Translations under genes and position numbers: made by a program
The notes under the pieces: generated by a model
Told to the model about the DNA's origin: nothing
Databases searched by the model: none
What the model saw: the letters and a program-made list of their open reading frames with translations, nothing else
Part shown: positions 33,137-48,438 of the stretch, one piece after another
Layout of the letters: each line of letters starts with the position of its first letter
How positions within the stretch are numbered: the first letter of the stretch is position 1
Origin: Bacteroidota bacterium
Lineage (GTDB): Bacteria > Bacteroidota > Bacteroidia > AKYH767-A > OLB10
Assembly (NCBI GenBank): GCA_046303115.1
Contig: JBKCGZ010000190.1
Coordinates: forward strand, 1 to 62,761
Length of the DNA: 62,761 nt
Direction: 5' to 3'

Positions 33137-34798
33137 ATGATGCTTCGAAATAACTTCTTTTATTCATTGGTCTGCCTCTTTTTAGGGATTACTTTTTCTT
33201 CAGTTGGACAAAATAGCAAGCCCGATTTTAGATCGCCGGTGGATATTCCTATTTCACTGGCGGGCAATTTTTGTGAAATCAGACCCAATCATTTTCATTC
33301 CGGTATCGATATCCGAACAAATGGAAAGGAAGGCTTACCCATATTTGCAATTGATGATGGATATGTTTCAAGAATCAAGGTGAGTCCAACAGGATTTGGA
33401 AGAGTCGTTTATATCAACCATCCCGAAGGATATACCTCCGTTTATGCCCATTTATCTTCTTTCAATTCTCCGTTGGATGCTTTTGTCGACTCCATTCAAA
33501 AGGCCAACGAATCATACGATATGGAAGAATTTCCCGATGCCAAAAGATTTAAAGTCAATAAAGGGGATTGCATAGGATGGAGTGGTAATTCAGGATCGAG
33601 TGCTTCGCCACATCTGCACTTTGAAATTCGTGATTTGAAATCGGAAGAGCCATTGAATCCGCTGGCGTTTTTAAATTATGAAGATTCTATTGCGCCAGTT
33701 ATTGAACGGATTAGAATAGTCCATATCAATTTAGATAAAGTTTATAAACCAATAACTGATATCTCAACTTCAGATTATTTAATAACTGTAACCACCGGTA
33801 TTGATTATGGGGATTATTATTTTGAATTAAAAGGAAGTGACAATAGTGGAGATTCGTATATGAACTTTTATTCCATTAACGTAATGACAAATAAAGGCGA
33901 TACACTATTTGATTGTAAGTTCGACCGATTTAATTTCGACGAAACAAGAATGGTAAATTCATTTATTAATTACTCTTCATTAGTAAACGATAAAGAAGAA
34001 TGGCAAAGACTTTACAAGCTACCCTCCAACACAGCTACACTATTTAAAAACTGTATTTCGAAACCACTTACCATTTCGGATGATAATGATACAATATATT
34101 TTAAAGTTACTGACTATAGTGGCAATTCAACAGTTGAACAAGTCATACTATACGGATTTAAACAAGAAGAAATAATAGGAGATTATAAAGAATCAATTTG
34201 CAGATATTACAATGAAAGTTTTACCATTCCTTTTAAATATGGATTCATGAATATCCCTGCTAGTGGAATAGATCAATCACTTTGTTACGAATTAACCGAT
34301 TACGATACAATCCCCGACTCAACAACCTTTTTAATTGGAGATCCTTCTGTTCCTTTAATCAAGAATGCAACAGTAGTGATTCAAAAAAAACTAGGCACTA
34401 ACTTTTGGCTTTGCGAAAGAAATTGGAAGAATGAATTAACCGGAACCTCATTCAAGTTAGACAGTGCGAAATACGGTTATCAAACAAGCATTAAAAAAAT
34501 GGGATGGTACTCGGTAGAATGCGATAGTGTAGCACCACAACTCATAAAAGTAATATCAGAAAAAGACCCTATCATCAAGGAACAGAAAAACATATTATTA
34601 AAAATCAGCGATGATATTTCAGGAGTTAAAAAAGCCAATGTATTCATTAATGGAAATTTCCTTCCATGCGAATTTGATTTAAAACGAAGCAGCGTTGTGA
34701 TTAAAGGAAGTCAACTCAAAAAAGGTGATATCATCCATTTAAAATTAATCGACTATCAAGGAAATACTACCTTAATAGAAAAAGTCGATTGGAATTGA
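33137..34798 (+). CDS. M23 family metallopeptidase
   Basis: Signal peptide; HFHSGID, YAHL, PHLHFEIR. Confidence 0.92.
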   Translation: MMLRNNFFYSLVCLFLGITFSSVGQNSKPDFRSPVDIPISLAGNFCEIRPNHFHSGIDIRTNGKEGLPIFAIDDGYVSRIKVSPTGFGRVVYINHPEGYTSVYAHLSSFNSPLDAFVDSIQKANESYDMEEFPDAKRFKVNKGDCIGWSGNSGSSASPHLHFEIRDLKSEEPLNPLAFLNYEDSIAPVIERIRIVHINLDKVYKPITDISTSDYLITVTTGIDYGDYYFELKGSDNSGDSYMNFYSINVMTNKGDTLFDCKFDRFNFDETRMVNSFINYSSLVNDKEEWQRLYKLPSNTATLFKNCISKPLTISDDNDTIYFKVTDYSGNSTVEQVILYGFKQEEIIGDYKESICRYYNESFTIPFKYGFMNIPASGIDQSLCYELTDYDTIPDSTTFLIGDPSVPLIKNATVVIQKKLGTNFWLCERNWKNELTGTSFKLDSAKYGYQTSIKKMGWYSVECDSVAPQLIKVISEKDPIIKEQKNILLKISDDISGVKKANVFINGNFLPCEFDLKRSSVVIKGSQLKKGDIIHLKLIDYQGNTTLIEKVDWN

Positions 34799-34861
34799 CA
34801 AGGGTCATTCACGTACTATGATGTAAGTCATTTTAAAATGTTATCCGTCGCTGTACTTTTG
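34796..34861 (+). promoter_or_regulatory. Crp/Fnr-type promoter: tandem TGA-N6-TCA boxes and -7 element
   Basis: TGACAAGGGTCA 34796-34807, TGATGTAAGTCA 34819-34830, 23-nt gap, TACTTTTG 34854-34861. Confidence 0.75.
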
Positions 34862-34864
34862 ATT

Positions 34865-34955
34865 TCGAGATGGAGACATCCCATTGTACTAAAATAATAG
34901 TACCATAGTTTACTGGTTTGGATAGAGTCGCAGCAATGCGGCTCTACTTTTTTTT
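34865..34955 (+). ncRNA. Candidate unannotated ~90-nt small RNA
   Basis: Own promoter; hairpins GATG-GAGA-CATC and GTACTA-N6-TAGTAC; single-stranded GU-rich tract; ends in intrinsic terminator; the next gene has a separate -7-like box (TACTTTCG 34959-34966). Confidence 0.6.
34923..34955 (+). terminator. Intrinsic terminator
   Basis: tagagtcgca-GCAA-tgcggctcta followed by C and T8. Confidence 0.9.
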
Positions 34956-34976
34956 AGTTACTTTCGCGAAAGATTT

Positions 34977-35699
34977 ATGCTTATTCTATTTTACTTTTTG
35001 GCATTAGTGGCGGAGGTTGTTGGAACAATTGGAGGGTTTGGTTCTTCCATCTTTTTTGTCCCCATTGCATCATTCTATTTCGAACCTAAATTAGTCCTTG
35101 GCATCACTGCATTTTTTCATGTGTTTAGCAATATCTCAAAGCTGGTGTTATTTGGAAAGCATATCAAAATGAACATCGCTTTGAAGTTTATAATACCGAG
35201 TGTAATTGGTGTTATCATTGGAGCGCTGTTAGTCGCTAAACAATCAGGAGAGATTTTTTCTTTATCGATTGGAATATTCCTGATTTTATTTGCACTGTAC
35301 TTTTTAATTTATCCGAATAAAACAATCAACGCAACCAACAAGAACATTGTGATAGGAGGAAGTAGCGCAGGATTTTTAGCAGGATTTATTGGTACAGGCG
35401 GAGTCATTCGTGGAGCAGCAATGGCGGCATTTAATCTCGAAAAGAATTGCTTTGTTGCTACCTCAGCATTTATCGATTTATTCGTTGATATTAGTCGTTC
35501 TGCAATCTATTATCAAAATGAATTTATTGCAAAAGATAAATGGTATTATATCCTTCCGTTGATTTTCATTTCTTTCGCTGGAAGCTATATTGGAAAATTA
35601 ATTCTTGAAAAATTAAACCAAGATAAGTTCAGAAGAATAGTTTTAATTTTAATTTCGATAATGGGAACAGTATCGGTAATTCGATTTATATGCCAGTAA
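34977..35699 (+). CDS. TSUP / sulfite exporter TauE/SafE family protein
   Basis: GTIGGFGSS and AGFIGTGG repeats, 8 TM. Confidence 0.85.
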   Translation: MLILFYFLALVAEVVGTIGGFGSSIFFVPIASFYFEPKLVLGITAFFHVFSNISKLVLFGKHIKMNIALKFIIPSVIGVIIGALLVAKQSGEIFSLSIGIFLILFALYFLIYPNKTINATNKNIVIGGSSAGFLAGFIGTGGVIRGAAMAAFNLEKNCFVATSAFIDLFVDISRSAIYYQNEFIAKDKWYYILPLIFISFAGSYIGKLILEKLNQDKFRRIVLILISIMGTVSVIRFICQ

Positions 35700-36688
35700 A
35701 GGATAAAAATTTCAGGACAAAAGTAAATGCCATTTCAGTGGTGCTGGCACTTTCTGTTTTGATTATGCTCATCAAATTCGTTGCTTATTACGTTACGAAA
35801 TCGAATGCATTATTATCAGATGCCCTTGAATCGTTTATCAATATTGCCACCAGCTCATTTACGCTTTACAGTATTTATTATTCTGCAAAATTAAAAGACC
35901 ATGATCATCCTTACGGACATGGTAAGATTGAATACCTTGCTGTAGGATTTGAAGGTGCCTTGATTTTAGGAACGGGCGTTTACATTTTATATGAAGCCTT
36001 TAATCATTTCATCCATCCAGAGCCTTTACAAAATGTAGATCTCGGAATTATGATTACTGCATCCACTGGACTATTCATGTATTTCATTGGATCGTTTTTG
36101 AAGAAGAAAGGTCGTGAGTTAGATTCAATTACTTTGGTTGCAGATGGAGAACATTTTCACTTGGACACTATCACCAGCATCGCACTAATTGTTGGATTAG
36201 TTTTATATCACTTAACCAAGTTAACCTGGATTGATCCATTACTCGCTGTATTGCTCGCTGTCCATATTATGATGAGTGGATATAAGCTTACCAAAGAGTC
36301 TATTGATCGTTTACTAGATAAAGCCGATTTCGATACCATTCAGAATGTGGTGAACTCCTTAAATAAAAATCGTAAACCCAACTGGATTGATATTCACAAT
36401 TTACGAATGCAGCGCTTTGGAAATATTATCCATATTGATTGTCATCTAACGCTTCCGTTTTATTACGCACTCGACCAAGTGCATAATGAAATCAAAAATT
36501 TAGAAGCAGATATCAATAAAGACTTCAATCAAGAAGTTGAGTTTTTTGTTCATACCGATCCTTGCAATGAAGAATTCCCTTGCAAGCTATGTAATGTAGA
36601 AGAATGTGCGTTTCGAAAGTTCGACCACCTTCAAACAGTTGATTGGGATATTAAAAATCTGATGGCTAATAAAAAGCATCAGCTGTAA
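35690..36688 (+). CDS. Cation diffusion facilitator family transporter
   Basis: ALLSDALES, DHDHPYGHGKIE, ADGEH, DIHNLR, Cys-rich tail. Confidence 0.93.
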   Translation: MPVKDKNFRTKVNAISVVLALSVLIMLIKFVAYYVTKSNALLSDALESFINIATSSFTLYSIYYSAKLKDHDHPYGHGKIEYLAVGFEGALILGTGVYILYEAFNHFIHPEPLQNVDLGIMITASTGLFMYFIGSFLKKKGRELDSITLVADGEHFHLDTITSIALIVGLVLYHLTKLTWIDPLLAVLLAVHIMMSGYKLTKESIDRLLDKADFDTIQNVVNSLNKNRKPNWIDIHNLRMQRFGNIIHIDCHLTLPFYYALDQVHNEIKNLEADINKDFNQEVEFFVHTDPCNEEFPCKLCNVEECAFRKFDHLQTVDWDIKNLMANKKHQL

Positions 36689-36691
36689 AAT

Positions 36692-37396
36692 TTATCTACA
36701 AGTTTGATGTGTCTTCACACGTTCATGCTTGCAACAATCACCTTCACCACTTTTCATTACACTACCTCGATGGATTAAAAACAAGGCTAATGCTATTGCA
36801 ATAAATGGAGATAGTTTGTTGATGGATAATTTTACTTTAGAACTAAAAATATTTTGAGATACTGCCACTATGTACATCAATGGTAGGGTGCCTAATCCAA
36901 ACAAAAGCATATAAGCCGCAGCATTAGTAATACCTCCATAACTAATAGCGCCCGCCATGGCTAAGTAAACAAATCCACAAGGTAATATTCCGTTTGCTAG
37001 TCCTACAACATACATTGCCGCAAATGATTTCTTCTTGATGTAATTTCCGATAACTGATTTAATCCTGAAAGACATTTTTACTAAACGTCCATTGACTTTA
37101 CTCAATAGTTTATCGTTTAAAAACAATACAACAAGGATGATTAATATTCCAGAGAAAATACTCAAATCACTTTGCAATCCTTTTAATTGAAAACTAATTC
37201 CAATTAATCCTGCTATCACACCCAACAGCATATACATCGTAACACGACCGAGTTGGTACATCAAGCGACCCAAATAAAAATGTCTTGCATCACCATCAAC
37301 AACAGGTAATGATAACGCAATGGGTCCGCACATACCAAGGCAATGAAAACTCCCTAAAAATCCGAGCGACAATGCGCTAATCAGATAATAATTCAT
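36692..37396 (-). CDS. cbb3-cluster membrane protein (DsbD_2 / TauE-like)
   Basis: GSFHCLGMCGPI and NGILPCGFVY motifs; last gene of the cco operon. Confidence 0.88.
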   Translation of the reverse strand: MNYYLISALSLGFLGSFHCLGMCGPIALSLPVVDGDARHFYLGRLMYQLGRVTMYMLLGVIAGLIGISFQLKGLQSDLSIFSGILIILVVLFLNDKLLSKVNGRLVKMSFRIKSVIGNYIKKKSFAAMYVVGLANGILPCGFVYLAMAGAISYGGITNAAAYMLLFGLGTLPLMYIVAVSQNIFSSKVKLSINKLSPFIAIALALFLIHRGSVMKSGEGDCCKHERVKTHQTCR

Positions 37397-37397
37397 T

Positions 37398-37829
37398 TTA
37401 CTGCAGCATTAATTTTTCTTCTTGCAAATATTCTTTTCCATCACAACTCCAGGCAATGGTTAATCGCCAATAGCCACCTGATAATTTATCCGACTGAACC
37501 AGCATTTTACCATTTTCGTTTTTGATGTTCATTGTAAAATCCTTTTGTTTATCGTCAGGACGATAAAATGTCAATTTGCCTTTTATGGCACGATTAGCAA
37601 ATTCAGAAGGAAAAGATAACTCAACTGATTTGTCATTGACAGGATTACATACTACCGTTGCTGCAGCGGCATTCTGCATTTTATTATAACGGTCTTGATA
37701 TTTTACTTCCTGATCGTAATAATTATCAGCAACCAACTCTGTGTTTTGTTGCGTGCATTTGTAAACCAATGTCAACATACCAACAACAAACAACACATAA
37801 ACAAACATTATTTTATATCCCCAATTCAT
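37398..37829 (-). CDS. ccoH: FixH/CcoH family protein
   Basis: MNWG start, LVADNYYDQE, FYRPDD; follows ccoG. Confidence 0.85.
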   Translation of the reverse strand: MNWGYKIMFVYVLFVVGMLTLVYKCTQQNTELVADNYYDQEVKYQDRYNKMQNAAAATVVCNPVNDKSVELSFPSEFANRAIKGKLTFYRPDDKQKDFTMNIKNENGKMLVQSDKLSGGYWRLTIAWSCDGKEYLQEEKLMLQ

Positions 37830-37831
37830 AG

Positions 37832-39244
37832 CTATTTTATTTTTACAGGACCAATGAAATTAGTCTTGATTGTTTCAATTATTTTGTTGCCAGATTTCAC
37901 TTCTAATACAATAGGCAGTCTGGCATTTACAATTTGATTTTGATTAATCATCACAAAGAATTCCCCATCCGCGCTACCTTGTCCTTCTAATTTTGTAATC
38001 CCATCGCCAACCCATTTCACACTTCCGTTCGGAGAAACGAGTTTAATATCAACGGGCATCTGATCGAACGTTTTATTAATGAGGTTCACGTTATATAAAT
38101 TTGAATAGATACTATCATTTTGTTGTTGGTAGATCATACCAGGAGTACGCAGTATAGTAGATTCCACATCGGAACGCATAATTAAAAGCGACAATAAGGT
38201 AGTCAGCAAAACGAAGAGTACAAATGAATACGCTTTTATTCTTCCTGTTATTTGAAATTTCGTCCCTTCAGCAATGGCATTTTCACTTGTATAACGGATA
38301 AGGCCATGTGGCTTTTTAATTTTATCCATGATGCCATCACATGCATCAATACAAGCAGTACAGTTTACACATTCGAGCTGCGTACCATTACGGATATCGA
38401 TACCGGTAGGACATACATTCACACATTGATGACAATCGATGCAATCACCAAATTTAGATTCAGCAGTCTTTTGCAATTTACCTCTTGGCTCTCCGCGTTT
38501 ATAATCGTACGCAATTACCACCGAATTTTTATCAAGCAAAACACCTTGTAGCCTTCCATAAGGACAAACAATTAAACAAGCCTGCTCGCGAAAACGCATA
38601 TACACCGCAAAGAACACGAACCTAAAAACGAGAATCGCTATTAACCCACCGACGTGATTGGATGGATCAACCAAAACAATTTGTTTTAATTCATCGATGC
38701 CAATGATGTAAGCAAGAAATGTATTTGCAATGATAAATGAAATCAGAAAAAAGATACTTCCTTTTAAAATTCGCTTTCTGAATTTTTCAGGAGATGGAGG
38801 AGCATTCTTCAATGCCTTTTGTTGTGCAGCATCACCTTCAATCCAGTATTCAATTTTACGAAAGACCATTTCCATGAAGATAGTTTGTGGGCAAGCCCAA
38901 CCACACCAGAGTCGCCCGAACAACGCTGTAAATACAATAATAAAAACAACAAACGTAAGCATCGCCAACACGAACAAGTAAAAGTCCTGTGGCCAAAAAG
39001 CAATTCCGAATAAAATAAACTTCCGCTCAACAACATTTAATAACATGAATGGGTGTCCGTTTAATTTAATAAACGGACCCACAAACATGACTGCTAATAA
39101 GAAATAACTAAATAATGTCCTTTTATTATAAAAGCGACCTTTAGGCTTCTTCGGAAAAATCCAATTACGGTTACCGTCTTTAGAAATAGTTGAAATACTA
39201 TCTCTAAAACTATCGGCTTCGTCGTAAATAGCGGGATCCATCAT
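37832..39244 (-). CDS. ccoG: Cytochrome c oxidase accessory protein CcoG
   Basis: CGWACPQT, CPYGRLQ, CIDCHQCVNVCPTGIDIR, CVNCTACIDAC. Confidence 0.96.
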   Translation of the reverse strand: MMDPAIYDEADSFRDSISTISKDGNRNWIFPKKPKGRFYNKRTLFSYFLLAVMFVGPFIKLNGHPFMLLNVVERKFILFGIAFWPQDFYLFVLAMLTFVVFIIVFTALFGRLWCGWACPQTIFMEMVFRKIEYWIEGDAAQQKALKNAPPSPEKFRKRILKGSIFFLISFIIANTFLAYIIGIDELKQIVLVDPSNHVGGLIAILVFRFVFFAVYMRFREQACLIVCPYGRLQGVLLDKNSVVIAYDYKRGEPRGKLQKTAESKFGDCIDCHQCVNVCPTGIDIRNGTQLECVNCTACIDACDGIMDKIKKPHGLIRYTSENAIAEGTKFQITGRIKAYSFVLFVLLTTLLSLLIMRSDVESTILRTPGMIYQQQNDSIYSNLYNVNLINKTFDQMPVDIKLVSPNGSVKWVGDGITKLEGQGSADGEFFVMINQNQIVNARLPIVLEVKSGNKIIETIKTNFIGPVKIK

Positions 39245-39252
39245 TTTAATTA

Positions 39253-40218
39253 TTAGTTAGCTGTAGTAGTAATTGTAGTTGCTGTTGAGTCAGTAGCAGT
39301 AGGAGCAGAGTCATCACCCCAAACATCACCTTGCGCAGGTTTTGCATTAGCAGGATTCGTATTCTGCATTGACAAAATATAACTTGAAACAGCTTGAATA
39401 TTCTTAGGTGTTAATTGCGTTTTCCAGCTGATCATTCCTTTTAAAGGAACGCCATTCGTGATTGTTCTAAAAACATTTTTTATTCCACCACCATGAATCC
39501 AATTAGGGTCAGTTAAATTGGGGCCTATGTTACCTTCCAAATTTTGACCGTGACAAGAAGTACAGTTTTTATTAAAAATTTCTTTTCCTTCACTTAAAAC
39601 AGTTGCATCGGTCAGCAACTTCACATTTTCAGCAGTCACCATGTCCGCCATTTTTTCATTTCTGATACGTTGTGCTTCATCAGCAGCTTGAACAGAAGCA
39701 ATGTACTCCTGATCTTGACTATAACCTGTTTTGAAAACATGGAAATGAAACACATAAATTACAGCCCATATAATGGTGAAGTAAAAACCCCATTTCCACC
39801 AAGGAGGTAAATTATTATCTAATTCACGAATTCCATCATAGTCATGATGAAGCATGATGTCCTCTTCCTTTTCAACAGGCACTGCTTGCGTTAAAACGTT
39901 ACGATCAAAGCGAGACCAAAACGATTCTGTCTGAACAGGCTTTACCGTTTCTGATTTTACCTGTTGCTCTTTTTGAGGAGCCATTCCTCTTGCAATAACT
40001 AATAACGTTCGTGCCATAACGAAAATGGCAATCAAGAGAATCAGAATAAAAATAGCCAGGTAATAAAAAGAAGGTTGGTAGAATAGTGGATCAACGGTTT
40101 TAAAGTATTGTCCACTGTTCGCTACTGTTGTACTATCTGTTACAGCTTGTGCATGGACAGTTGTATTGAAAAACAACTGTCCTGAAATTAATCCAATTGT
40201 GATGATGTACTTTTTCAT
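39253..40218 (-). CDS. ccoP: cbb3-type cytochrome c oxidase subunit III (single heme)
   Basis: HDYDGIRELDNNLPPWW, CTSCH, GPNLTD; ATG 40218 preferred. Confidence 0.93.
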   Translation of the reverse strand: MKKYIITIGLISGQLFFNTTVHAQAVTDSTTVANSGQYFKTVDPLFYQPSFYYLAIFILILLIAIFVMARTLLVIARGMAPQKEQQVKSETVKPVQTESFWSRFDRNVLTQAVPVEKEEDIMLHHDYDGIRELDNNLPPWWKWGFYFTIIWAVIYVFHFHVFKTGYSQDQEYIASVQAADEAQRIRNEKMADMVTAENVKLLTDATVLSEGKEIFNKNCTSCHGQNLEGNIGPNLTDPNWIHGGGIKNVFRTITNGVPLKGMISWKTQLTPKNIQAVSSYILSMQNTNPANAKPAQGDVWGDDSAPTATDSTATTITTTAN

Positions 40219-40228
40219 GATAATCAAT

Positions 40229-40405
40229 TTATGCGTTATTGGTTTCGTCGTTGCTTAATGGCAACCTGCTTATTTCATTTAACTCTTCTTTATTTGCCTT
40301 TACCACATAAACAATCAAGGCAGTAAAGAATACGAAGAATACCAGCAGAGAGAACATAGGATAAATACCTACGTCAGTAATTTGTTCTAAATATTGTTTA
40401 AACAT
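40229..40405 (-). CDS. ccoQ: cbb3-type cytochrome c oxidase subunit IV (58 aa; not in ORF track)
   Basis: Manual translation MFKQYLEQITDVGIYPMFSLLVFFVFFTALIVYVVKANKEELNEISRLPLSNDETNNA; fills the ccoNO-ccoP gap. Confidence 0.9.
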   Translation of the reverse strand: MFKQYLEQITDVGIYPMFSLLVFFVFFTALIVYVVKANKEELNEISRLPLSNDETNNA

Positions 40406-40413
40406 ATGCTTGC

Positions 40414-42546
40414 TTATTTTGTAGTTGAATTATCAGAAACTTTATTTGCTTTAATATCGACACCTAATCGTTGTAAGTAGGCAATCATTGCTACTAACTC
40501 TTTATTTGCATCGATAGGAGCACCACTCTTATTTAAGTCCGCGGCAATTTCATTTGCTTGCTTCATCAAATCAGCATTGGCTTGTTGATCGTACCCTTTT
40601 GTGTAAGGAACGCCTAACGTAATCATCGCTCTGATTTTTGCTGGAGTAGAAGCAGTATCTAAATTATTTTCTGCAAGAAAAGCATATGGAGGCATGATAG
40701 AACCTGGCGACATAGTTCGAGGATCAATCATATGATGATAATGCCATACGTTTTGATATTTTCCTCCAACACGTAATAAATCAGGACCTGTTCGCTTAGA
40801 ACCCCATTGGAAAGGATGATCATACACAAACTCACCAGCTTTAGCATATTCTCCATAACGTTCTGTTTCGTGACGGAACGGACGAACCATTTGCGAGTGA
40901 CAAGTGTAACAACCTTCACGGATATAAATATCACGACCTTGTAATTCAAGTGGAGTATAAGGCTTCACTGATGCAATCGTTGGAATATTTTCTTTAATCA
41001 TGAATGTTGGAATCATCTCTACTAATCCACCAATTAAAATCAACACCGTTGCAAACAACATCATCTGAATTGGTCTTCTTTCAATCCAACGATGCCAGTG
41101 ACCACCTTCATGAACAGGAACAGCTTCTAATGCTGGAGCTTCTGCTGGTTCATTCGCTAATAAATCGCCCGTCTTCATCGTCATCACTAAATTGTAAACC
41201 ATCGTTAACGCACCTGCTAAATACAACGTACCACCAACAGCACGTAACTTATACATCGGCATTAACTTCGTTACCGTTGCTAAGAAGTTTGGATATTTTA
41301 ATAATCCATCATCAGTAAATTGTTGCCACATCATGTATTGTTCAAACCCTGCCCAATACATCGGAATGGCATAGAATAAAATTCCTAACGTTGCTAACCA
41401 GAAGTGATAGCTTGCTAATTTTTTAGAGTATAATTCGGTTTGATAAATGCGAGGGATTAACCAATATAAAATACCAAATGTTAACATACCATTCCATCCA
41501 AGTCCACCAATATGCACGTGTGCGATGGTCCAATCTGTAAAGTGAGAAATTGCATTCACTGATTTCAATGATAACATCGGACCTTCAAATGTTGCCATAC
41601 CATAGGCAGTGATTGCAACAACCATAAACTTCAATACAACACTTTCACGAACACGATCCCATGCACCACGCAATGTCAAAAGTCCGTTGATCATACCACC
41701 CCAGCTCGGAGCAATTAACATGATAGAGAAAACAGTTCCTAATGATTGCGCCCAATCAGGTAATGCAGTATATAATAAGTGATGAGGACCTGCCCAGATA
41801 TAAATAAAAATTAATGCCCAGAAGTGAATTATCGATAATCGATAAGAATACACCGGACGATTAGCAGCCTTCGGAACGAAATAATACATCAAACCTAAAT
41901 ACGGCGTAGTTAAAAAGAAGGCTACTGCATTATGTCCGTACCACCATTGCACTAACGCATCTTGCACACCTGCATATACAGGATAGCTCTTTAATATACT
42001 TACAGGAATTTCAATACTATTTACAATGTGAAGTACTGCAACAGTAACCACCGTTGCAATATAAAACCAAATGGCAACGTATAGATGTCGCTCGCGACGT
42101 TTGATAATTGTACCAAACATATTCACCGCAAATACAACCCAAGTAAGTGTGATCAAGATATCAATCGGCCATTCTAATTCAGCATATTCTTTACCTGTTG
42201 TATGTCCGGTAATTAATGTTAATGCAGCAAGCACAATAATCGATTGCCACATCCAAAAATGAAGTTTGCCTAACAAGTCGCTAAACAATCTCGCTTTCGT
42301 TAAACGTTGAAGGGAATAATACAATCCCATAAAAATTCCATTACCTACAAAGGCAAAAATGATGGCGTTGGTATGTATAGGTCGTACGCGACCAAATGTA
42401 ACATACTCACCAGCATTTAAACCAGGAAAAGGTATTTGAAGGGCTGCAATTAAACCCACCAGCATTCCTACAATTCCCCAGATAATTGTCGCAACTGCAA
42501 AATTCCTAACAATGCGATTGTCGTAGCTATACTTCTCAATTGTCAT
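40414..42546 (-). CDS. ccoN: cbb3-type cytochrome c oxidase fused subunits I/II (CcoN-CcoO)
   Basis: QWWYGHNAVAF, WAGPHH, AHVH; CcoO part CYTCHSQMVRP, GSKRTGPDL. Confidence 0.97.
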   Translation of the reverse strand: MTIEKYSYDNRIVRNFAVATIIWGIVGMLVGLIAALQIPFPGLNAGEYVTFGRVRPIHTNAIIFAFVGNGIFMGLYYSLQRLTKARLFSDLLGKLHFWMWQSIIVLAALTLITGHTTGKEYAELEWPIDILITLTWVVFAVNMFGTIIKRRERHLYVAIWFYIATVVTVAVLHIVNSIEIPVSILKSYPVYAGVQDALVQWWYGHNAVAFFLTTPYLGLMYYFVPKAANRPVYSYRLSIIHFWALIFIYIWAGPHHLLYTALPDWAQSLGTVFSIMLIAPSWGGMINGLLTLRGAWDRVRESVVLKFMVVAITAYGMATFEGPMLSLKSVNAISHFTDWTIAHVHIGGLGWNGMLTFGILYWLIPRIYQTELYSKKLASYHFWLATLGILFYAIPMYWAGFEQYMMWQQFTDDGLLKYPNFLATVTKLMPMYKLRAVGGTLYLAGALTMVYNLVMTMKTGDLLANEPAEAPALEAVPVHEGGHWHRWIERRPIQMMLFATVLILIGGLVEMIPTFMIKENIPTIASVKPYTPLELQGRDIYIREGCYTCHSQMVRPFRHETERYGEYAKAGEFVYDHPFQWGSKRTGPDLLRVGGKYQNVWHYHHMIDPRTMSPGSIMPPYAFLAENNLDTASTPAKIRAMITLGVPYTKGYDQQANADLMKQANEIAADLNKSGAPIDANKELVAMIAYLQRLGVDIKANKVSDNSTTK

Positions 42547-42718
42547 AATGATTGATTTTTGATTTTTCGTTTGATGTTATTTCATTATCCATTAATATGC
42601 GAACTGCAGGGGAAGTATCATCATCAAATTGTCCTGTTTTAACAGACCAGAAAAATGCAATCAGAAATCCGATAGCAACGGTTAAACTGGCAATGATTAA
42701 AAGGATGATTACTTTCAT
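42536..42718 (-). CDS. ccoS: cbb3 oxidase maturation protein CcoS
   Basis: Hydrophobic N-terminus then WSVKTGQFDD...PAVRIL. Confidence 0.93.
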   Translation of the reverse strand: MKVIILLIIASLTVAIGFLIAFFWSVKTGQFDDDTSPAVRILMDNEITSNEKSKINHYDN

Positions 42719-42726
42719 AACGAGAG

Positions 42727-42791
42727 CAAATCTATTTCGAGAGTAGGATTAATTAAATGACTGCTATTAGGGTGATTTATGATAATTGTCA
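42727..42791 (-). promoter_or_regulatory. Crp/Fnr-type promoter of ccoS-NO-Q-P-G-H operon
   Basis: -7 box TAGATTTG (42727-42734, minus), 23-nt gap, TGACTGCTATTA 42758-42769, TGATAATTGTCA 42780-42791. Confidence 0.75.
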
Positions 42792-42793
42792 AC

Positions 42794-45211
42794 CTACTTC
42801 GTGAAACCTAATTGTCGTGCTTTTATCGAGCTGGCCACTACCGTATATATCACTAAACTGCTTGTGCTGATAGGCATTAAAATAGCCGCAATTACAGGCG
42901 ATAAAGTTCCTTGTACTGCAAACCATAATCCCAGAAAATTATACACCAGTGATATGATAAAACTGATGATGATAATTCGGTTAGCCGACTTGGCAAGACG
43001 AATTAACTTCTCCAATTTTGATAAATTACTTCCAATAATAATAGCATCACATGCAGGAGTAAAATTGTTGATGTCGTTTGAAATGGCAATTCCTACATGG
43101 CTATGCATTAACGCACCTGCATCATTTAATCCATCACCAACCATCATTGTTTTAAATCCATGTTGATTAAGTTCATTGATGTAATTTAACTTATCAATTG
43201 GTTTGCAATGAAAGCGCATATGCGTTCCTTCGGGAAGAATTGTACTTAGGTTGATTCGCTCATGCTCATCATCACCACTGATCACACCTAATTGAATATT
43301 GTGATTTGATAAGTCGGAAGTTAACTCTTGAACGCCTTCGCGATATTTATTTTGAATTGCGAAATATCCGTATACCTCATTATCAATTCCAATATATACT
43401 CGTGTTGATTTTAATGTATCGAGTTGTTTTTTTCCTGTCAGGTATTCTTCACTTCCAATTTTATAGTGATGTCCGAAAATCATGGCCGTTAATCCTTGAC
43501 CAGGAAATTCTTCAATATGAATAGATGTATCTGCGAATGCTTTTAATTTCAAATATTTCGATAATACAATACTTAATGGATGAGTAGAAGAGGATACAAT
43601 TGTATAGATAGCACGTAAATGAAAATCGCTCAATTCAACACCAACATAATTTATCTGATTAGATTCAGGTTCCGTTAATGTGCCTGTTTTATCAAATATA
43701 ACGGTATCAATATCCGCCAACTTTTCTATTACCTGAACATTGCGTAGATAAATTCCTTTCTTACCAAGCAATCGAATAATATTTCCGAAGGTGAAAGGAG
43801 CAGATAATGCCAATGCACAAGCACACGCAATAACAAGTACCGCAGTGAAAGCATTAATTGCTCTTGTAAAATCCTGATGATACCAATAAGCAAAGGATGA
43901 TATAGCAATCACAACGGTCACGAGAACAAACCATCGGCTAATGGTATTCACCATTTTTTGAAAATAACTTGTCTGATTAACTTTATCACTTTGTTGATTC
44001 CAAAGTTTGGTCAGGTAACTATTAGAGGTTGCCTGATCGACCATCACGTCGATAGGACCATTCAACAACTTTGCTCCCGCATAAATCAATTCACCTTTAT
44101 TGACTTTTATAGGTGTTGATTCACCAGAAACAAAACTATAATCGATATGAGCAGATTGATTTAACAGTTTTACATCAGCAGGAATAATCTCATGATTGCG
44201 AATCTTTAGTCGATCACCTTTAACAACATCATTTACTAAAACAGTTTCTTCTTTAATGCCATTGTATCTCGTAACCGCAATAGGGAAGTAGGAGGTATAA
44301 TCCCTGTTAAACGAAAGCCATTGATAGGTTTTATCTTGAAAATTTCTTCCAATAAGCATGAAGAAGATAAGTCCCGTCATACTATCAAAATAACCAGGAC
44401 CCGTACCAGAAACAATTTCGTACAAGCTTCTTAAAAACATGGCTAAAATACCGATGGCAATAGGCACATCAATATTGACAACCTTTTGTCGGAAGCTTCT
44501 AAAAGAGTTAATAAAAAACTCACTTGCAGAATAAAAGAAAACCGGCAATGCTAAAACCACAATCACATATCGAAATAAATGTCGGAAGTCCTCAGCGCCA
44601 AAAACACCTCCCGATAAATATTCAGGAAAACTCAACAACATAATATTTCCAAAAGCAAATCCAGCTAAACCAATTTTATAAATCCTTGCATTCGATTTTT
44701 TAGCGAACTGATGATTGCTGACTTTATTTAAATTCAATTCTGGCTCGTAACCAATTAATGTAAGTTGTTCAACTATATTGCGAAGGGAAGTTGCCGACGA
44801 ATTAAAAACAATCAATATTTCCTTGCTGACAAAATCAACTTGCGATCGTATTACGCCCTTATCGATTCTTGAAAAATTCTCTAACAACCAAATACAACTA
44901 CTACAATGCATATTCGGAATATGAAAACGAATATGAACTTCATTCTTAGATTTAAAACTGATTAACTTCTCAATAATTTGCTCTTCCTCTAAAAAAGCAA
45001 AGCGATTACCGAGATAACTGTTCTTACGATTTATGCCAGGGTTATCGGAAATAGCGTAATAATTACAAAGGTTGTTTTCATTCAGTACTTCATATACTAA
45101 CTTACAACCTACGCAACAAAAGTCTTTATCATCAAATTTAACTTTGTCTTCTTCACACTTTTCGTGACAGTGATAACAATTGATAACTACTGAAGTATTT
45201 GTTAATGACAT
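42794..45211 (-). CDS. ccoI: Heavy-metal (copper) P1B-type ATPase CcoI/FixI
   Basis: CYHC and FCCVGC N-terminal motifs, HCSSC, SGES, CACAL, DKTGT, GDGLNDA. Confidence 0.93.
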   Translation of the reverse strand: MSLTNTSVVINCYHCHEKCEEDKVKFDDKDFCCVGCKLVYEVLNENNLCNYYAISDNPGINRKNSYLGNRFAFLEEEQIIEKLISFKSKNEVHIRFHIPNMHCSSCIWLLENFSRIDKGVIRSQVDFVSKEILIVFNSSATSLRNIVEQLTLIGYEPELNLNKVSNHQFAKKSNARIYKIGLAGFAFGNIMLLSFPEYLSGGVFGAEDFRHLFRYVIVVLALPVFFYSASEFFINSFRSFRQKVVNIDVPIAIGILAMFLRSLYEIVSGTGPGYFDSMTGLIFFMLIGRNFQDKTYQWLSFNRDYTSYFPIAVTRYNGIKEETVLVNDVVKGDRLKIRNHEIIPADVKLLNQSAHIDYSFVSGESTPIKVNKGELIYAGAKLLNGPIDVMVDQATSNSYLTKLWNQQSDKVNQTSYFQKMVNTISRWFVLVTVVIAISSFAYWYHQDFTRAINAFTAVLVIACACALALSAPFTFGNIIRLLGKKGIYLRNVQVIEKLADIDTVIFDKTGTLTEPESNQINYVGVELSDFHLRAIYTIVSSSTHPLSIVLSKYLKLKAFADTSIHIEEFPGQGLTAMIFGHHYKIGSEEYLTGKKQLDTLKSTRVYIGIDNEVYGYFAIQNKYREGVQELTSDLSNHNIQLGVISGDDEHERINLSTILPEGTHMRFHCKPIDKLNYINELNQHGFKTMMVGDGLNDAGALMHSHVGIAISNDINNFTPACDAIIIGSNLSKLEKLIRLAKSANRIIIISFIISLVYNFLGLWFAVQGTLSPVIAAILMPISTSSLVIYTVVASSIKARQLGFTK

Positions 45212-45230
45212 ATCATATAAATCTTGAATA

Positions 45231-45295
45231 CAAGATTATTCAATGTATACACCTATACGAATGACAAATGTCAGTTGCTATTTTGATAGTGGTCA
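45231..45295 (-). promoter_or_regulatory. Crp/Fnr-type promoter of ccoI
   Basis: -7 variant TAATCTTG (45231-45238, minus), 23-nt gap, TGACAAATGTCA 45262-45273, TGATAGTGGTCA 45284-45295. Confidence 0.75.
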
Positions 45296-45338
45296 CAAAA
45301 CATTTTTTCCAAAAAGTGGTTTAAATTATATCTATGAA

Positions 45339-45381
45339 TGACGTAGGTCATTTGCAACTCATCTTGAATAAAGCAATTTTG
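45339..45381 (+). promoter_or_regulatory. Crp/Fnr-type promoter of the 45402 hypothetical gene
   Basis: TGACGTAGGTCA 45339-45350, 23-nt gap, -7 variant CAATTTTG 45374-45381. Confidence 0.65.
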
Positions 45382-45401
45382 CAAATACATAATTGAACAA
45401 C

Positions 45402-45803
45402 ATGTTATCCGAAACAAAAGCGTCGAGCTCGCTACACCTTTACATCGATTTAAACTCAAGACTATCTGAAATCCAGAGAGAGTTCAATTCTTATTTCCCA
45501 TTCTTAAAGATTGAATTTTTTAAAGCACCTCATAAAATCGGACAAGGATTAAAGAAAGATCTAATCATCAATTCGAATAAATTAGTGAAGGATTGTTCAA
45601 CTATCAAAAAGGGTGGTGTAATTGAATTTACCAATATCACTTCTGTAAGCGATTTAGAAACGAAATTTTTCAAAGACTTTAAATTATCTGTGCAGGTATT
45701 TAGAAAGGCAGGTAGGGTATGGTTAGAAACAACTGCAACAGATAGCTGGACCCTAGCGCAACAAAATGAAGAAGGCGCTGAATTCTCAACGCCCTCTAAA
45801 TAA
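45402..45803 (+). CDS. Conserved hypothetical protein
   Basis: EIQREFNSYFPFLKIEFF, VQVFRKAGRVWLETTATDSWTLAQQN; ATG 45402 follows promoter. Confidence 0.8.
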   Translation: MLSETKASSSLHLYIDLNSRLSEIQREFNSYFPFLKIEFFKAPHKIGQGLKKDLIINSNKLVKDCSTIKKGGVIEFTNITSVSDLETKFFKDFKLSVQVFRKAGRVWLETTATDSWTLAQQNEEGAEFSTPSK

Positions 45804-45816
45804 TATGATCTTCTTT

Positions 45817-46875
45817 TTAAGCTTTTAAATGTCGAAGCTTTTCATCATTGATGATTTTAATTTTTCCTTCTTTAATCTCAATTAACTTTTCTTCTTTAAA
45901 ATCACTAAGCGTTCTAATCAACGACTCAGTAGCTGTCCCAACAATATTGGCTAAATCTTCACGAGCGATAGCCATAGCAAAATGAGATGCATCAGTCGTC
46001 TTGTACTTATCTTGTAATAAAATCAATGCCTCGGCAGTTCTCTTTCTAACAGAACTGTAAGCCAATTCTAATAGACGTTCTTGCTTATCGATAACACCCT
46101 TTGTTAAGAAACGAATAAAGTTCTTCGTAACGGCATGGTTGCTATAAACCAGATTAAAAAACTCTTCCTTCGGAATGAAAATCACTTCTGACTCTTCTAG
46201 CGTTTCAGCACTTTCAATATAAGGCTTTTCTTCTAACAGCGACACATATCCGAAGAAATCACCTTCTTTCAATAAATCAGTGATCAACTCTTTACCATAC
46301 TCATGCGTCTTGGTAATTTTAACCTTACCTGACTTCACATAATAAATTCCGTTAGGGTAGTGGTGCTCCTGATAAATCTTTTCTTTCTTTTTATAATGAT
46401 TCACTTTTTTACCATCTAGGAATTTCTTCAAGGCTGCATCACCAGCCACATCACTGATGAAATGACTTAGTCCATCAAAGTCAGGCTGATAATCTTTCTT
46501 AAGTGCATCAGCTCTTTTCAAACGACTTTCAATAGCGTTTAATAATTCCGTCTTATCAAAAGGTTTGGTGATATAATCATCAGCACCTAAATCCATTCCT
46601 TTACGCATATCGCTGCGCTCAGCTTTTGCCGTCAAGAAAATAAATGGAACTGAATTTAAATCATTATCCTTACTCAGTAAATGTAAAACTCCATAGCCAT
46701 CTAAACCTGGCATCATGATATCACAGATAATCAAATCTGGTTTTTCCTTACGAGCCATTTCAACACCCTCTTTTCCATCCGGTGCTGTACAAACTGTATA
46801 ATTCGCCAGCTCTAAAATTTCAGCTGTATTTTCTCTTACATCCAGATTGTCTTCAATTAATAAAATCTTTTTCAT
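45817..46875 (-). CDS. Response regulator: receiver domain fused to a Crp/Fnr cNMP-like and HTH domain
   Basis: LLIEDN, ICDIMMPGLDG, FLTAK, DDYITKPF; then GKVKI, GDFFG; HTH REDLANIVGTATESLIRTLSDFK. Confidence 0.93.
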   Translation of the reverse strand: MKKILLIEDNLDVRENTAEILELANYTVCTAPDGKEGVEMARKEKPDLIICDIMMPGLDGYGVLHLLSKDNDLNSVPFIFLTAKAERSDMRKGMDLGADDYITKPFDKTELLNAIESRLKRADALKKDYQPDFDGLSHFISDVAGDAALKKFLDGKKVNHYKKKEKIYQEHHYPNGIYYVKSGKVKITKTHEYGKELITDLLKEGDFFGYVSLLEEKPYIESAETLEESEVIFIPKEEFFNLVYSNHAVTKNFIRFLTKGVIDKQERLLELAYSSVRKRTAEALILLQDKYKTTDASHFAMAIAREDLANIVGTATESLIRTLSDFKEEKLIEIKEGKIKIINDEKLRHLKA

Positions 46876-46879
46876 AGCA

Positions 46880-48121
46880 TTAATTTATTTGATTCGGAAA
46901 AGTGATCTCAATCCTTGTTCCTTCGTTTAGTTTACTTGTTAAATGTAAATGACCTTTCATAATGTCAACATAGTTGCCCACAATATGCAACCCTAATCCT
47001 GTACCTTGAATATTAAATGCATTTTTTCCTCTATAGAAACGCTCAAACAAATGCTTCAAATCTTCTTCGCTAATTCCAATTCCCTGATCTTGCACCACCA
47101 TCTTTATTTCATTGGTATTTACATCTGCATCCAATGTTATAGACTTGCCTTCTGATGAAAATTTAATAGCATTACTTAAAAGATTAAAAAGAATATTCTT
47201 GATTAGCTTAGCATCAAGAAACACCAAATTATCACCACGATAATTAATAATTATTTCTTGTCCTGCTTTTGTATTCTGACGCATATCACTCGCAATTTCA
47301 TTTATCAGCATATTCAAATCGAACATACTCATATCGGCATGAATCTTTCCTTCTTCTAATTTACTGATGGATAGAAAATCACTTAAGATATCATTCAGGT
47401 TATTAACTGACGATTGAATTCGTTTGATATGCTTTTGCTTTTTCTCTTCTTGCTCAGGAGTTTTATATTCTGAAATCAAAACAGCAGAAGAAAGGATAGT
47501 GGTGAGTGGTGTACGAAACTCATGCGATGCCATTGAAATAAATCGCGACTTTAAATCATTCAGGTCTTTTTCTTTTTCAAGTGCCATACTTAATTCTGAT
47601 CTCGACTTCTCTAATTCCAAAATTGCTTCCTGCAAAACGCTGGTACGATCAGAAACCTTTCGTTCTAAATCTTCATTCGACTTTTGCAAGGTAAGTGCAA
47701 TCTGTTCGAGTTCTAATTGTTTTTCCTTAACCGCAGCTTCAATTTTCTTTCTGATAGAAATATCAATTAAAAAGGCAATTATGTATTTTCGATCATCCTT
47801 AAAAATAGGACTCAAACTAATCTCGATAGGAAACAAGGTCCCATCTTTTCTTAAAGCATATAAATCTAAACCCAATCCCATCGGACGAGCGTGAGGCTTA
47901 TCGACATACGATTTACGATGATGTTCATGATGTACTTTGATGTTCTTAGGAACCAATACATCAATCGATTCATTTAATAATTCATTCGACTCATATCCGA
48001 ACATCTTACATGCTGCTGGATTCATCAATTGAATCAATCCACTTTCATTGGAAATAATAATCCCTTCAGTAGCATGATTGAATAGGGCATCGAGCAACTC
48101 GACTTTCTCAAAATTCTGCAT
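46880..48121 (-). CDS. Cytoplasmic PAS-domain sensor histidine kinase (FixL-like)
   Basis: PAS (NPAACKMFGY...HHEHH...RPMG...RKDGTLFPIEISLS), H-box SHEFRTPL, N-box NLLSNAIKF, G-boxes DQGIG and GTGLGL; no TM. Confidence 0.93.
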   Translation of the reverse strand: MQNFEKVELLDALFNHATEGIIISNESGLIQLMNPAACKMFGYESNELLNESIDVLVPKNIKVHHEHHRKSYVDKPHARPMGLGLDLYALRKDGTLFPIEISLSPIFKDDRKYIIAFLIDISIRKKIEAAVKEKQLELEQIALTLQKSNEDLERKVSDRTSVLQEAILELEKSRSELSMALEKEKDLNDLKSRFISMASHEFRTPLTTILSSAVLISEYKTPEQEEKKQKHIKRIQSSVNNLNDILSDFLSISKLEEGKIHADMSMFDLNMLINEIASDMRQNTKAGQEIIINYRGDNLVFLDAKLIKNILFNLLSNAIKFSSEGKSITLDADVNTNEIKMVVQDQGIGISEEDLKHLFERFYRGKNAFNIQGTGLGLHIVGNYVDIMKGHLHLTSKLNEGTRIEITFPNQIN

Positions 48122-48170
48122 TTGACTAAAATAAGTAAGCTCTAAAAATAAACATTTTTAATGCGCTCTT

Positions 48171-48350
48171 TTATTTATTGCTGTTATATCCTGCTAAATA
48201 ATACAACGGACAAAATCCAGAAGCACCTGTTACAAACGGGATTAATCCCGAAATTGCCCAAAATGAATTATGATAGATAAAAAAAGACGCGACAGCTACT
48301 CCAGCAACTAAGCGAATAACTCGTTCATTAAAATTTTCATTGGTTACCAT
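48171..48350 (-). CDS. DUF2892 (YgaP-like membrane domain) protein
   Basis: NENFNERVIRL, GFCPLY motif; start moved to ATG 48350. Confidence 0.85.
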   Translation of the reverse strand: MVTNENFNERVIRLVAGVAVASFFIYHNSFWAISGLIPFVTGASGFCPLYYLAGYNSNK

Positions 48351-48372
48351 AGTGATATTTATTTGTTGAATC

Positions 48373-48437
48373 CAAAAGTAGATGCTCCATCCAACCAAAT
48401 AAATTACGCTAATCAGTACACGTTATGATAAATATCA
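48373..48437 (-). promoter_or_regulatory. Crp/Fnr-type promoter upstream of DUF2892-kinase-regulator
   Basis: -7 box TACTTTTG (48373-48380, minus), 23-nt gap, TTACGCTAATCA 48404-48415, TGATAAATATCA 48426-48437. Confidence 0.75.
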
Positions 48438-48438
48438 C

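Follow-up and report, generated by a model that had tools for sequence, protein, structure and literature searches.

Five promoters in a stretch of 62,761 nucleotides from a member of the Bacteroidota (assembly GCA_046303115.1, contig JBKCGZ010000190.1; the whole of this stretch is called the window, and positions refer to it unless a contig is named) were found to share one layout, in which two abutting palindromic boxes with the core TGA-N6-TCA lie at a fixed distance from a −7 element of the Bacteroidota sigma-A type (TAnnTTTG). Analysis of the window, of the genome and of related genomes firmly established this layout as a conserved cis-architecture with precise spacing, which location and co-occurrence link to a widespread regulator, in which a receiver domain is fused to a Crp/Fnr-type protein, and to a PAS histidine kinase. 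We consider it reasonably probable that the boxes are operators of the regulator encoded at 45817-46875, which would be driven by a haem-PAS-like kinase sensing falling oxygen and would activate class-II-like promoters.

Tandem boxes in the window and in the genome

A preliminary description of the window, made from the sequence alone, had reported a TGA-N6-TCA box exactly 23 nt ahead of a −7 element at five promoters, preceded at four of them by a second perfect box 22-23 bp further upstream. Re-reading of the four intergenic regions concerned showed every one of its box and −7 coordinates to be correct. Perfect boxes start at 34796, 34819, 42780, 45262, 45284, 45339 and 48426, and boxes with one mismatch at 42758 (TGActgctaTTA) and 48404 (TTAcgctaaTCA); the tighter motif TGAY-N4-RTCA is matched by all nine good boxes. 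The spacer between the proximal box and the −7 element is exactly 23 nt at all five promoters, and the start-to-start distances within the box pairs are 23, 22, 22, 22 and 22. The second perfect box is present at the four promoters for which it had been claimed (34796, 42780, 45284 and 48426), and the distal box of the fifth (45317), already described as degenerate, carries two mismatches to TGAY-N4-RTCA. Three of the five −7 elements are perfect matches to TAnnTTTG and the other two have one mismatch, which places these promoters in the Bacteroidota sigma-A type. The elements are the following:

34796-34807, + strand: site 1, distal box TGACAAGGGTCA, perfect; its first TGA doubles as the stop codon of the M23 peptidase gene upstream
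34819-34830, + strand: site 1, proximal box TGATGTAAGTCA, perfect
34854-34861, + strand: site 1, −7 element TACTTTTG, perfect; predicted start near 34866
42780-42791, − strand: site 2 (ccoS operon), distal box, perfect
42758-42769, − strand: site 2, proximal box, one mismatch; TAATAGCAGTCA on the − strand
42727-42734, − strand: site 2, −7 element TAGATTTG, perfect; 8 nt ahead of the ccoS ATG (42718)
45284-45295, − strand: site 3 (ccoI), distal box, perfect
45262-45273, − strand: site 3, proximal box, perfect; best score of the genome with a matrix built from relatives only
45231-45238, − strand: site 3, −7 element TAATCTTG, one mismatch
45317-45328, + strand: site 4 (unnamed protein), distal box TGGTTTAAATTA, degenerate
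45339-45350, + strand: site 4, proximal box TGACGTAGGTCA, perfect
45374-45381, + strand: site 4, −7 element CAATTTTG, one mismatch
48426-48437, − strand: site 5 (DUF2892-kinase-regulator operon), distal box, perfect
48404-48415, − strand: site 5, proximal box, one mismatch
48373-48380, − strand: site 5, −7 element TACTTTTG, perfect

Site 1 is located between the M23 peptidase gene and a TauE-family gene. In the divergent region between ccoI and the unnamed-protein gene, the boxes that start at 45262, 45284, 45317 and 45339 are separated by 22, 33 and 22 bp, all of them approximate multiples of 11. At site 2 the predicted ccoS leader is only about 4 nt long, so that the transcript would be nearly leaderless (42718-42734); relatives have 8-14 nt between the −7 box and the ATG.

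The genome scanned for further sites comprises 2.66 Mb in 212 contigs, with an intergenic set of 1039 segments (193 kb). The plain TGA-N6-TCA core was not enriched in the window (34 occurrences against 28.6 expected, a number reached by 19 of 100 shuffles), and genome-wide its density was no higher in intergenic than in coding DNA; the signal therefore resides in the tighter motif and in the geometry. Tandem pairs, defined as two TGAY-N4-RTCA boxes with a gap of 9-11 nt and at most one mismatch in total, numbered seven in the whole genome, compared with a mean of 1.75 in 20 shuffles. Three of them are in coding DNA, and the four intergenic ones are precisely the four of the preliminary description; they all lie within a 14-kb stretch, and all four are followed by a −7 box at 22-24 nt. 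In 200 dinucleotide shuffles of the intergenic DNA the mean number of tandem pairs was 0.08 (maximum 2), and the comparison with shuffled intergenic DNA that had been proposed beforehand thus returned four composite sites (box pair plus −7 element) in the real sequence and none in any shuffle. The weaker pattern of a single box (at most one mismatch) followed by N23 and TAnnTTTG, with at most one mismatch in total, has 45 matches in the 2.66 Mb, five of them in this 13.6-kb stretch, and with a matrix trained only on relatives the sites of the window ranked at the top of the genome.

No intergenic tandem site was found in this genome beyond the window with the thresholds as set, and the tandem-box regulon of this small genome appears confined to the window. 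Lower-scoring single-box candidates elsewhere, ahead of genes for a FIST protein, AhpC, MbnP, an HlyD-type protein and a multihaem cytochrome, are leads only as to further members. One of them, a single good box at C26:16622, lies 45 nt ahead of a perfect TATATTTG and fronts an MbnP-family gene (C26:16737-17540; copper acquisition); if genuine, this site could connect the cbb3 regulon with the supply of copper.

Conservation of the layout in other Bacteroidota

Forty-one relatives up to order level were surveyed, and the genomes compared here and below are kin, so that counts are not counts of independent events. The fused regulator is present in 36 of the 41, in which survey perfect tandem sites numbered 102, against 11 with a reversed-pattern control; 21-bp repeats raise the counts of two genomes. 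In the five relatives without the fused regulator the numbers of perfect tandem sites are 0, 0, 1, 0 and 1, and in the closed genome G030 five of the six perfect tandem sites lie inside the 42 kb around the regulator gene. The repeats in question form arrays in G028 (C104:100536-100610) and G032 (C129:66-140 and C238:12821-12895), where each 21-bp unit contains TGAC-N4-GTCA and swells the tandem counts.

In a collection with one genome per species, relatives of the regulator are encoded in at least 577 stretches, and the carriers among the matches listed include Chitinophagaceae, Sphingobacteriaceae, Spirosomataceae (with Runella limosa DSM 17973), Fluviicola and metagenome-assembled genomes of Flavobacteriales. 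The best 80 of these stretches, taken with 4 kb on either side of the regulator gene (648 kb), were used for an analysis of the geometry that did not presuppose any spacing and had the reversed sequence as control. Perfect boxes numbered 228 in these loci and 23 in the reversed sequence. Box-to-box start distances peaked at 22 (26 pairs) and 23 (7 pairs), and the spacers between perfect boxes and perfect TAnnTTTG elements peaked at 23 (21 cases) and 45 (53 cases), with almost none at other lengths. The full composite (box, 10 nt, box, 23 nt, TAnnTTTG) was found at 146 sites in 60 of the 80 loci and at none in the control; the spacing on whose conservation in orthologous promoters the preliminary description had let its case depend is therefore conserved. 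A gap of exactly 10 nt occurs in 132 of the 146 sites, as does a spacer of exactly 23 nt. Perfect matches make up 111 of the 146 distal boxes and 65 of the 146 proximal ones, and the consensus of the tandem boxes is [A/C]TGAY-N4-RTCA[T/G]. Such sharp spacing peaks across several families would be hard to explain without a function.

Twenty larger neighbourhoods of the fused regulator in the relatives were taken for closer reading, and 13 of them contain at least one composite site. The kinase gene adjoins the regulator gene in 18 of the 20, and ccoNO falls inside the fetched stretch in four. The loci L010, L011, L019 and L020 show the same layout at the ccoS, ccoI, unnamed-protein and kinase/DUF2892 promoters, and the DUF2892 promoter of one relative has three boxes in phase.

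The promoter frame was taken from Flavobacterium psychrophilum, in which the sigma-A TAnnTTTG box occupies −12 to −5 (PMC9723704). Positions counted in this way are −47 to −36 for the proximal box (centre −41.5) and −69 to −58 for the distal box (centre −63.5), in agreement with the estimate of the preliminary description. Alignment of 119 sites with gap 10 and spacer 23 revealed no conserved −33 TTTG after the proximal box; only the first base of the spacer is conserved (T in 89 of the 119), and TAnnTTTG is present in all 119, this element being a selection criterion. The missing −33 element fits activator-dependent promoters, judging from the aligned sequences. Proteins of the CRP/FNR type canonically activate class II promoters from −41.5.

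To describe the genes that the sites serve in the neighbourhood of the regulator (as distinct from whole genomes), the first open reading frame (ORF) after each composite site in the 80 loci was tallied, which gave 141 ORFs from the 146 sites. The kinase leads among the named families with 22, and DUF2892, which precedes the kinase, accounts for 6, so that the kinase/regulator operon is itself fronted by tandem boxes in 28 of the 80 loci. Genes of the cbb3 oxidase and of its copper pump are represented by ccoI (12), ccoS (4) and ccoN (2). The remaining ORFs encode DoxX (14), Usp (12), the unnamed family of about 130 residues to which the protein encoded at 45402-45803 belongs (10), HSP20 (9), TerB (4), beta-CASP (3), hemerythrin/ScdA (2), BON (2) and single families (8), with 31 other ORFs lacking a family.

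Regulator, kinase and competing readings

Sites 2 to 5 front the following genes of the window:

36692-42718, − strand: ccoS-ccoNO-ccoQ-ccoP-ccoG-ccoH-DsbD_2 operon, cbb3 oxidase and its maturation (Pfam FixS, COX1+FixO, FixP_N, FixG, FixH, DsbD_2)
42794-45211, − strand: ccoI, FixI-type copper P-type ATPase (Pfam E1-E2_ATPase, ATPase-cat_bd, HMA)
45402-45803, + strand: unnamed protein of a Bacteroidota family, 133-136 residues (no Pfam or NCBIfam name)
45817-46875, − strand: response regulator with receiver, cNMP-binding-like and HTH_Crp domains (Pfam), the proposed binder
46880-48121, − strand: PAS-HisKA-HATPase histidine kinase with a FixL/DosP-like PAS domain (Pfam and PDB chain matches)
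48171-48350, − strand: DUF2892 small membrane protein (YgaP-like TM; Pfam), first gene of the kinase/regulator operon

The regulator belongs to the Crp/Fnr family by its domains (PF00027 at 5e-22, PF13545 at 1e-13 and PF00325 at 2e-5, all over the cut-off) and is a response regulator by its receiver (PF00072 at 8e-31, with D9, D52, T82 and K104 read in the sequence). All of 100 orthologues retain the acceptor Asp, and likewise the Glu and the Ile-Arg of the recognition helix GTATE[ST]xIR, which reads TATESLIR in the window. The solved structure closest to residues 135-348 is PDB 2gau (E 2e-24), and no NCBIfam model reached its cut-off for the regulator or for the kinase. Two more familiar identities were considered and rejected. 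The protein is not FNR proper, the Fe-S sensor, since its N-terminus is a receiver and its Crp part lacks Cys (the only Cys residues, C29 and C51, belong to the receiver, and residues 130-352 are free of Cys), and it is not FixK, a stand-alone Crp/Fnr protein without sensory input, since it carries a fused receiver domain. It may act as FixJ and FixK in one.

The preliminary description had named this protein as the probable binder, and it stands as the best candidate: it is one of only two Crp/Fnr-family proteins of this genome, the other having 211 residues, and its own operon is fronted by the boxes in a good third of the 80 loci. Binding of the TGA-N6-TCA core by a dimer of the regulator is suggested by the co-location of sites and gene and by the conserved Glu and Arg of the helix.

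The first 140 residues of the kinase match the haem-PAS chains of FixL and DosP (E 4e-13 to 2e-10). The proximal His of FixL aligns with a His of the kinase that is invariant in 22 of 22 orthologues, consistent with homology to haem-PAS domains, and it is plausible from this alignment that the PAS domain binds haem. Low oxygen as the signal is suggested by the targets and by the likeness of this domain to those of FixL and DosP.

From these observations we infer the identity of the binder, the sign of regulation, any cooperativity and the nature of the signal in the following scheme. The kinase, through its probably haem-binding PAS domain, would sense falling oxygen or a related haem ligand and phosphorylate Asp52 of the regulator. 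Two regulator dimers would then sit on one face of the helix at the abutting sites, of which the distal (−63.5) is usually the better match and the proximal (−41.5), weaker, abuts the place of the missing −33 element. The bound regulator would recruit sigma-A RNA polymerase in a class-II-like manner. The predicted outputs are the cbb3 operon, ccoI, the unnamed protein encoded at 45402-45803 and a 90-nt RNA or leader behind site 1, and the kinase/regulator operon would be an output as well, with positive feedback as the result. The scheme amounts to a rhizobial FixL-FixJ-FixK cascade collapsed to one phosphotransfer step.

Several observations weigh against this scheme. With the thresholds as set, no composite site was found in 20 of the 80 loci and in 7 of the 20 larger neighbourhoods, and the kinship of the compared genomes makes the counts overstate their independence. 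Homologues of the 211-residue Crp/Fnr protein occur in 28 of the 41 relatives and adjoin the fused regulator in G021 and G030, and a second binder of the tandem boxes is conceivable. Nor is the box type exclusive to the fusion, to judge from G017 and G033, two relatives with cbb3 oxidase that lack the fused regulator and yet have one or two boxes ahead of ccoS. Finally, the distal Arg of FixL (which we take to be R220 in Bradyrhizobium numbering) aligns with Leu here; Arg is found in 3 of the 22 orthologues, and Met, Leu, Ile, Ser or Phe in the other 19, so that the ligand chemistry may differ from that of FixL.

G017 and G033 each encode a stand-alone FNR-like homologue of 236 residues that is 39% identical to the regulator over the Crp part (L033:1780-2490, − strand, and L034:1292-2002, + strand), adjoining a cytochrome c gene and lying beside an ORF that is presumably NosZ-like, to judge from the N-terminal sequence of NosZ. 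The recognition helices of these homologues, GTATETTIR in G017 and GTATETAIR in G033, are nearly as in the fused regulator, and the box therefore belongs to a Fnr-like subfamily of the Bacteroidota. The homologues carry an N-terminal C-x2-C-x8-C motif, and their best NCBIfam match is Fnr, which suggests that a receiver domain may have replaced the Fe-S sensory extension during evolution and so given rise to the fusion. Between helix variants the box bases differed only slightly (with the Lys variant, for instance, G is more frequent at −2; 40 half-sites), in data too few and too related to count as co-variation.

At the distal position, 21 orthologous kinases (L046-L108) have Met in 11 cases and Arg in 3, and Leu, Ile, Ser or Phe in the rest. 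Met is the distal ligand of DosP of E. coli, of which the Met of the orthologues is reminiscent, and by this analogy the haem may be six-coordinate.

The replacement of the distal Arg is also the first ground for an alternative that we regard as unlikely, while taking it seriously: the same boxes and regulator could serve a kinase that reports NO, CO, the redox state or a non-haem ligand, in a general stress or dormancy regulon that includes cbb3. The recurrent targets are in part of the stress type and not strictly respiratory (Usp 12, HSP20 9, DoxX 14, TerB 4 and hemerythrin/ScdA 2 of the 141), as this alternative would have it. Against it, the respiratory genes that recur most consistently belong to the high-affinity oxidase and to its copper pump (ccoI 12, ccoS 4, ccoN 2), and the closest solved PAS domains are oxygen sensors. 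In addition, the cbb3 oxidase of F. psychrophilum is strongly induced under oxygen limitation, according to the part of PMC9723704 available.

It is quite improbable that the tandem boxes are bound by the 211-residue protein (C197:1209-1844), with the fused regulator serving other targets. This protein is the only other Crp/Fnr member of the genome, its homologues are widespread in the relatives, as stated above, and a GTGA-N6-TCAC box at C197:1200-1211 lies directly behind its stop codon, with a −7-like element 23 nt downstream. Its helix, SSREVISR, nevertheless differs from TATESLIR of the fused regulator, with which it shares 18% identity, and a G before the TGA, as in that neighbouring box, is rare in the tandem boxes (4-12% of half-sites in groups with at least 24 half-sites). 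Moreover, a homologue was not found at E ≤ 1e-20 in G013, G023, G027, G028 and G035, all of which have 2 to 7 perfect tandem sites, and the gene is unlinked to the cco locus: its row (C197:1-5500, locus L009) reads FdhD, DUF7009, a YdeP-like molybdoenzyme, Crp, OsmC and two rhodaneses. Similar single GTGA...TCAC sites occur at C191:5825 and C100:107848, and these sites may form a separate small regulon.

Repression is hardly probable either. The regulator would in that case bind the boxes, occlude the −33 region and shut the promoters under the signalling condition, in keeping with a proximal box that ends at −36, next to the position of the −33 element, and with the negative autoregulation of FixK2 recorded in the accessible part of PMC9104804. 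However, the 119 aligned promoters conserve no −33 TTTG, which is typical of activator-dependent promoters, the box centre in the published frame coincides with the canonical class II activating position, and the same geometry serves cbb3, which in a flavobacterium is induced and not repressed at low oxygen (PMC9723704, part available). As for a chance clustering of AT-rich palindromes devoid of function, the lack of enrichment of plain TGA-N6-TCA in the window or in intergenic DNA would agree with it, but its probability is negligible, as the absence of composites from 200 shuffles, the 146 sites against none in the control and the sharp spacing peaks refute it.

Further features of the window, known systems and meaning

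The transcript predicted from site 1 is a candidate RNA of about 90 nt:

34866-34955, + strand: candidate RNA with a hairpin at 34923-34946 followed by T8 at 34948-34955, ending just before the start codon of the TauE-family gene

It folds better than its shuffles (z-score −2.74), and an alignment with four other genomes of the same genus shows it conserved, with compensatory changes in the stem of the terminator and a single-stranded stretch around 34904-34921 that is invariant. By DNA search it was recovered from one of 40 genomes sampled from the family, that one being of the same genus, and from two of five further genomes of the genus. The preliminary description had proposed a small RNA here; a conserved, terminator-bearing RNA is indeed predicted, and it could equally be a small RNA or a terminated leader of the TauE-family gene. 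A scan of 34000-49000 against Rfam gave no family, its two snoRNA rows (E 0.27 and 0.67) being below the gathering score, and a duplex-energy search for targets among 2107 start regions gave no coherent picture (a TPR protein, a protein without known function, an ECF sigma factor and proline dehydrogenase at the top).

The longest ORF of the DUF2892 gene (48171-48398) begins with TTG at 48398, upstream of the predicted −7 box; the ATG at 48350, which gives 59 residues, is the more likely start and suits both the promoter and the 60-65 residues of the relatives. The structure model of the unnamed protein encoded at 45402-45803 is confident (pLDDT 84.8) and comprises two beta-alpha-beta units; it had no PDB match at E ≤ 0.001, and in the ESM Atlas the protein matched unnamed Bacteroidota clusters only. 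Its family was seen only in Bacteroidota, and the invariant residues include F28, P33, G104, W107 and Q121-N122.

The system resembles the rhizobial FixL-FixJ-FixK cascade in its haem-PAS-like kinase, its Crp/Fnr-type activator, its box with a TGA-N6-TCA core before cbb3 and ccoGHIS-type genes and its low-oxygen logic. It differs from it in that receiver and Crp/Fnr parts form one polypeptide, with no separate FixJ (LuxR-type output) and no relay to fixK; in that the rhizobial TTGA-N6-TCAA is replaced by [A/C]TGAY-N4-RTCA[T/G] in abutting pairs 22 bp apart; in the −7 promoter type of the Bacteroidota; and in the distal Arg, which is not kept. With FNR of E. coli it shares the superfamily, the Glu and Arg of the helix (E..xR) and possibly a regulated small RNA, the 90-nt RNA being comparable in idea to FnrS, the FNR-linked small RNA of E. 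coli. Unlike FNR, the regulator lacks an N-terminal Cys cluster, its control would be by phosphorylation and not by an Fe-S centre, and a second site at −63.5 is obligatory; stand-alone, Cys-bearing FNR-like homologues exist in relatives without the fusion. A further likeness is to DosS/DosT-DosR of mycobacteria, in which a haem-based kinase acts on a response regulator and Usp and alpha-crystallin/HSP20 are prominent, as they are among the targets in the relatives; that system differs in its GAF instead of PAS sensor, its LuxR/NarL-type output, its unrelated DNA motif and its phylum. The structure 2gau is that of a Crp/Fnr-family regulator of Porphyromonas gingivalis, from the same phylum, and has 232 residues and no receiver domain. 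The −41.5 placement shared with FNR holds under the published frame (PMC9723704, part available).

The tandem architecture had been thought undescribed in Bacteroidota, and no description of it, of a receiver-Crp/Fnr fusion or of a Bacteroidota Fnr-type box was found in the literature searched, which is no proof of absence. Receiver fusions are unmentioned in the accessible parts of PMC3590769, PMC8510549 and PMC9723704, and neither Fnr nor Crp is named anywhere in the main text of the last. Apparently, then, the joining of one-step FixL-type two-component sensing to class-II-like activation by a Crp/Fnr protein is undescribed so far.

More speculatively, and with somewhat less than even confidence, the system may be a hitherto unrecognised master hypoxia switch common to the aerobic Bacteroidota (Chitinophagales, Cytophagales, Sphingobacteriales and some Flavobacteriales). 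A haem-PAS kinase would directly phosphorylate the Crp/Fnr-type activator, which, brought by phosphorylation as a dimer of dimers to a strong −63.5 and a weak −41.5 site, 22 bp apart, would give a cooperative, switch-like response and turn on a dormancy-like regulon of cbb3, CcoI, Usp, HSP20, DoxX, two unnamed families and, in this genus, a FnrS-like small RNA.

Aerobic Bacteroidota are abundant in lakes, soils and wastewater and in fish disease, and how they sense oxygen and induce their high-affinity oxidase is not established. The finding supplies candidates for the sensor and the regulator, an operator of exact geometry and a set of conserved targets. For the mechanism of transcription, it proposes a natural Crp/Fnr activator under phosphorylation control, and it presents an unusual fixed pair of abutting sites at promoters without the −35 element on which the class II models were built.

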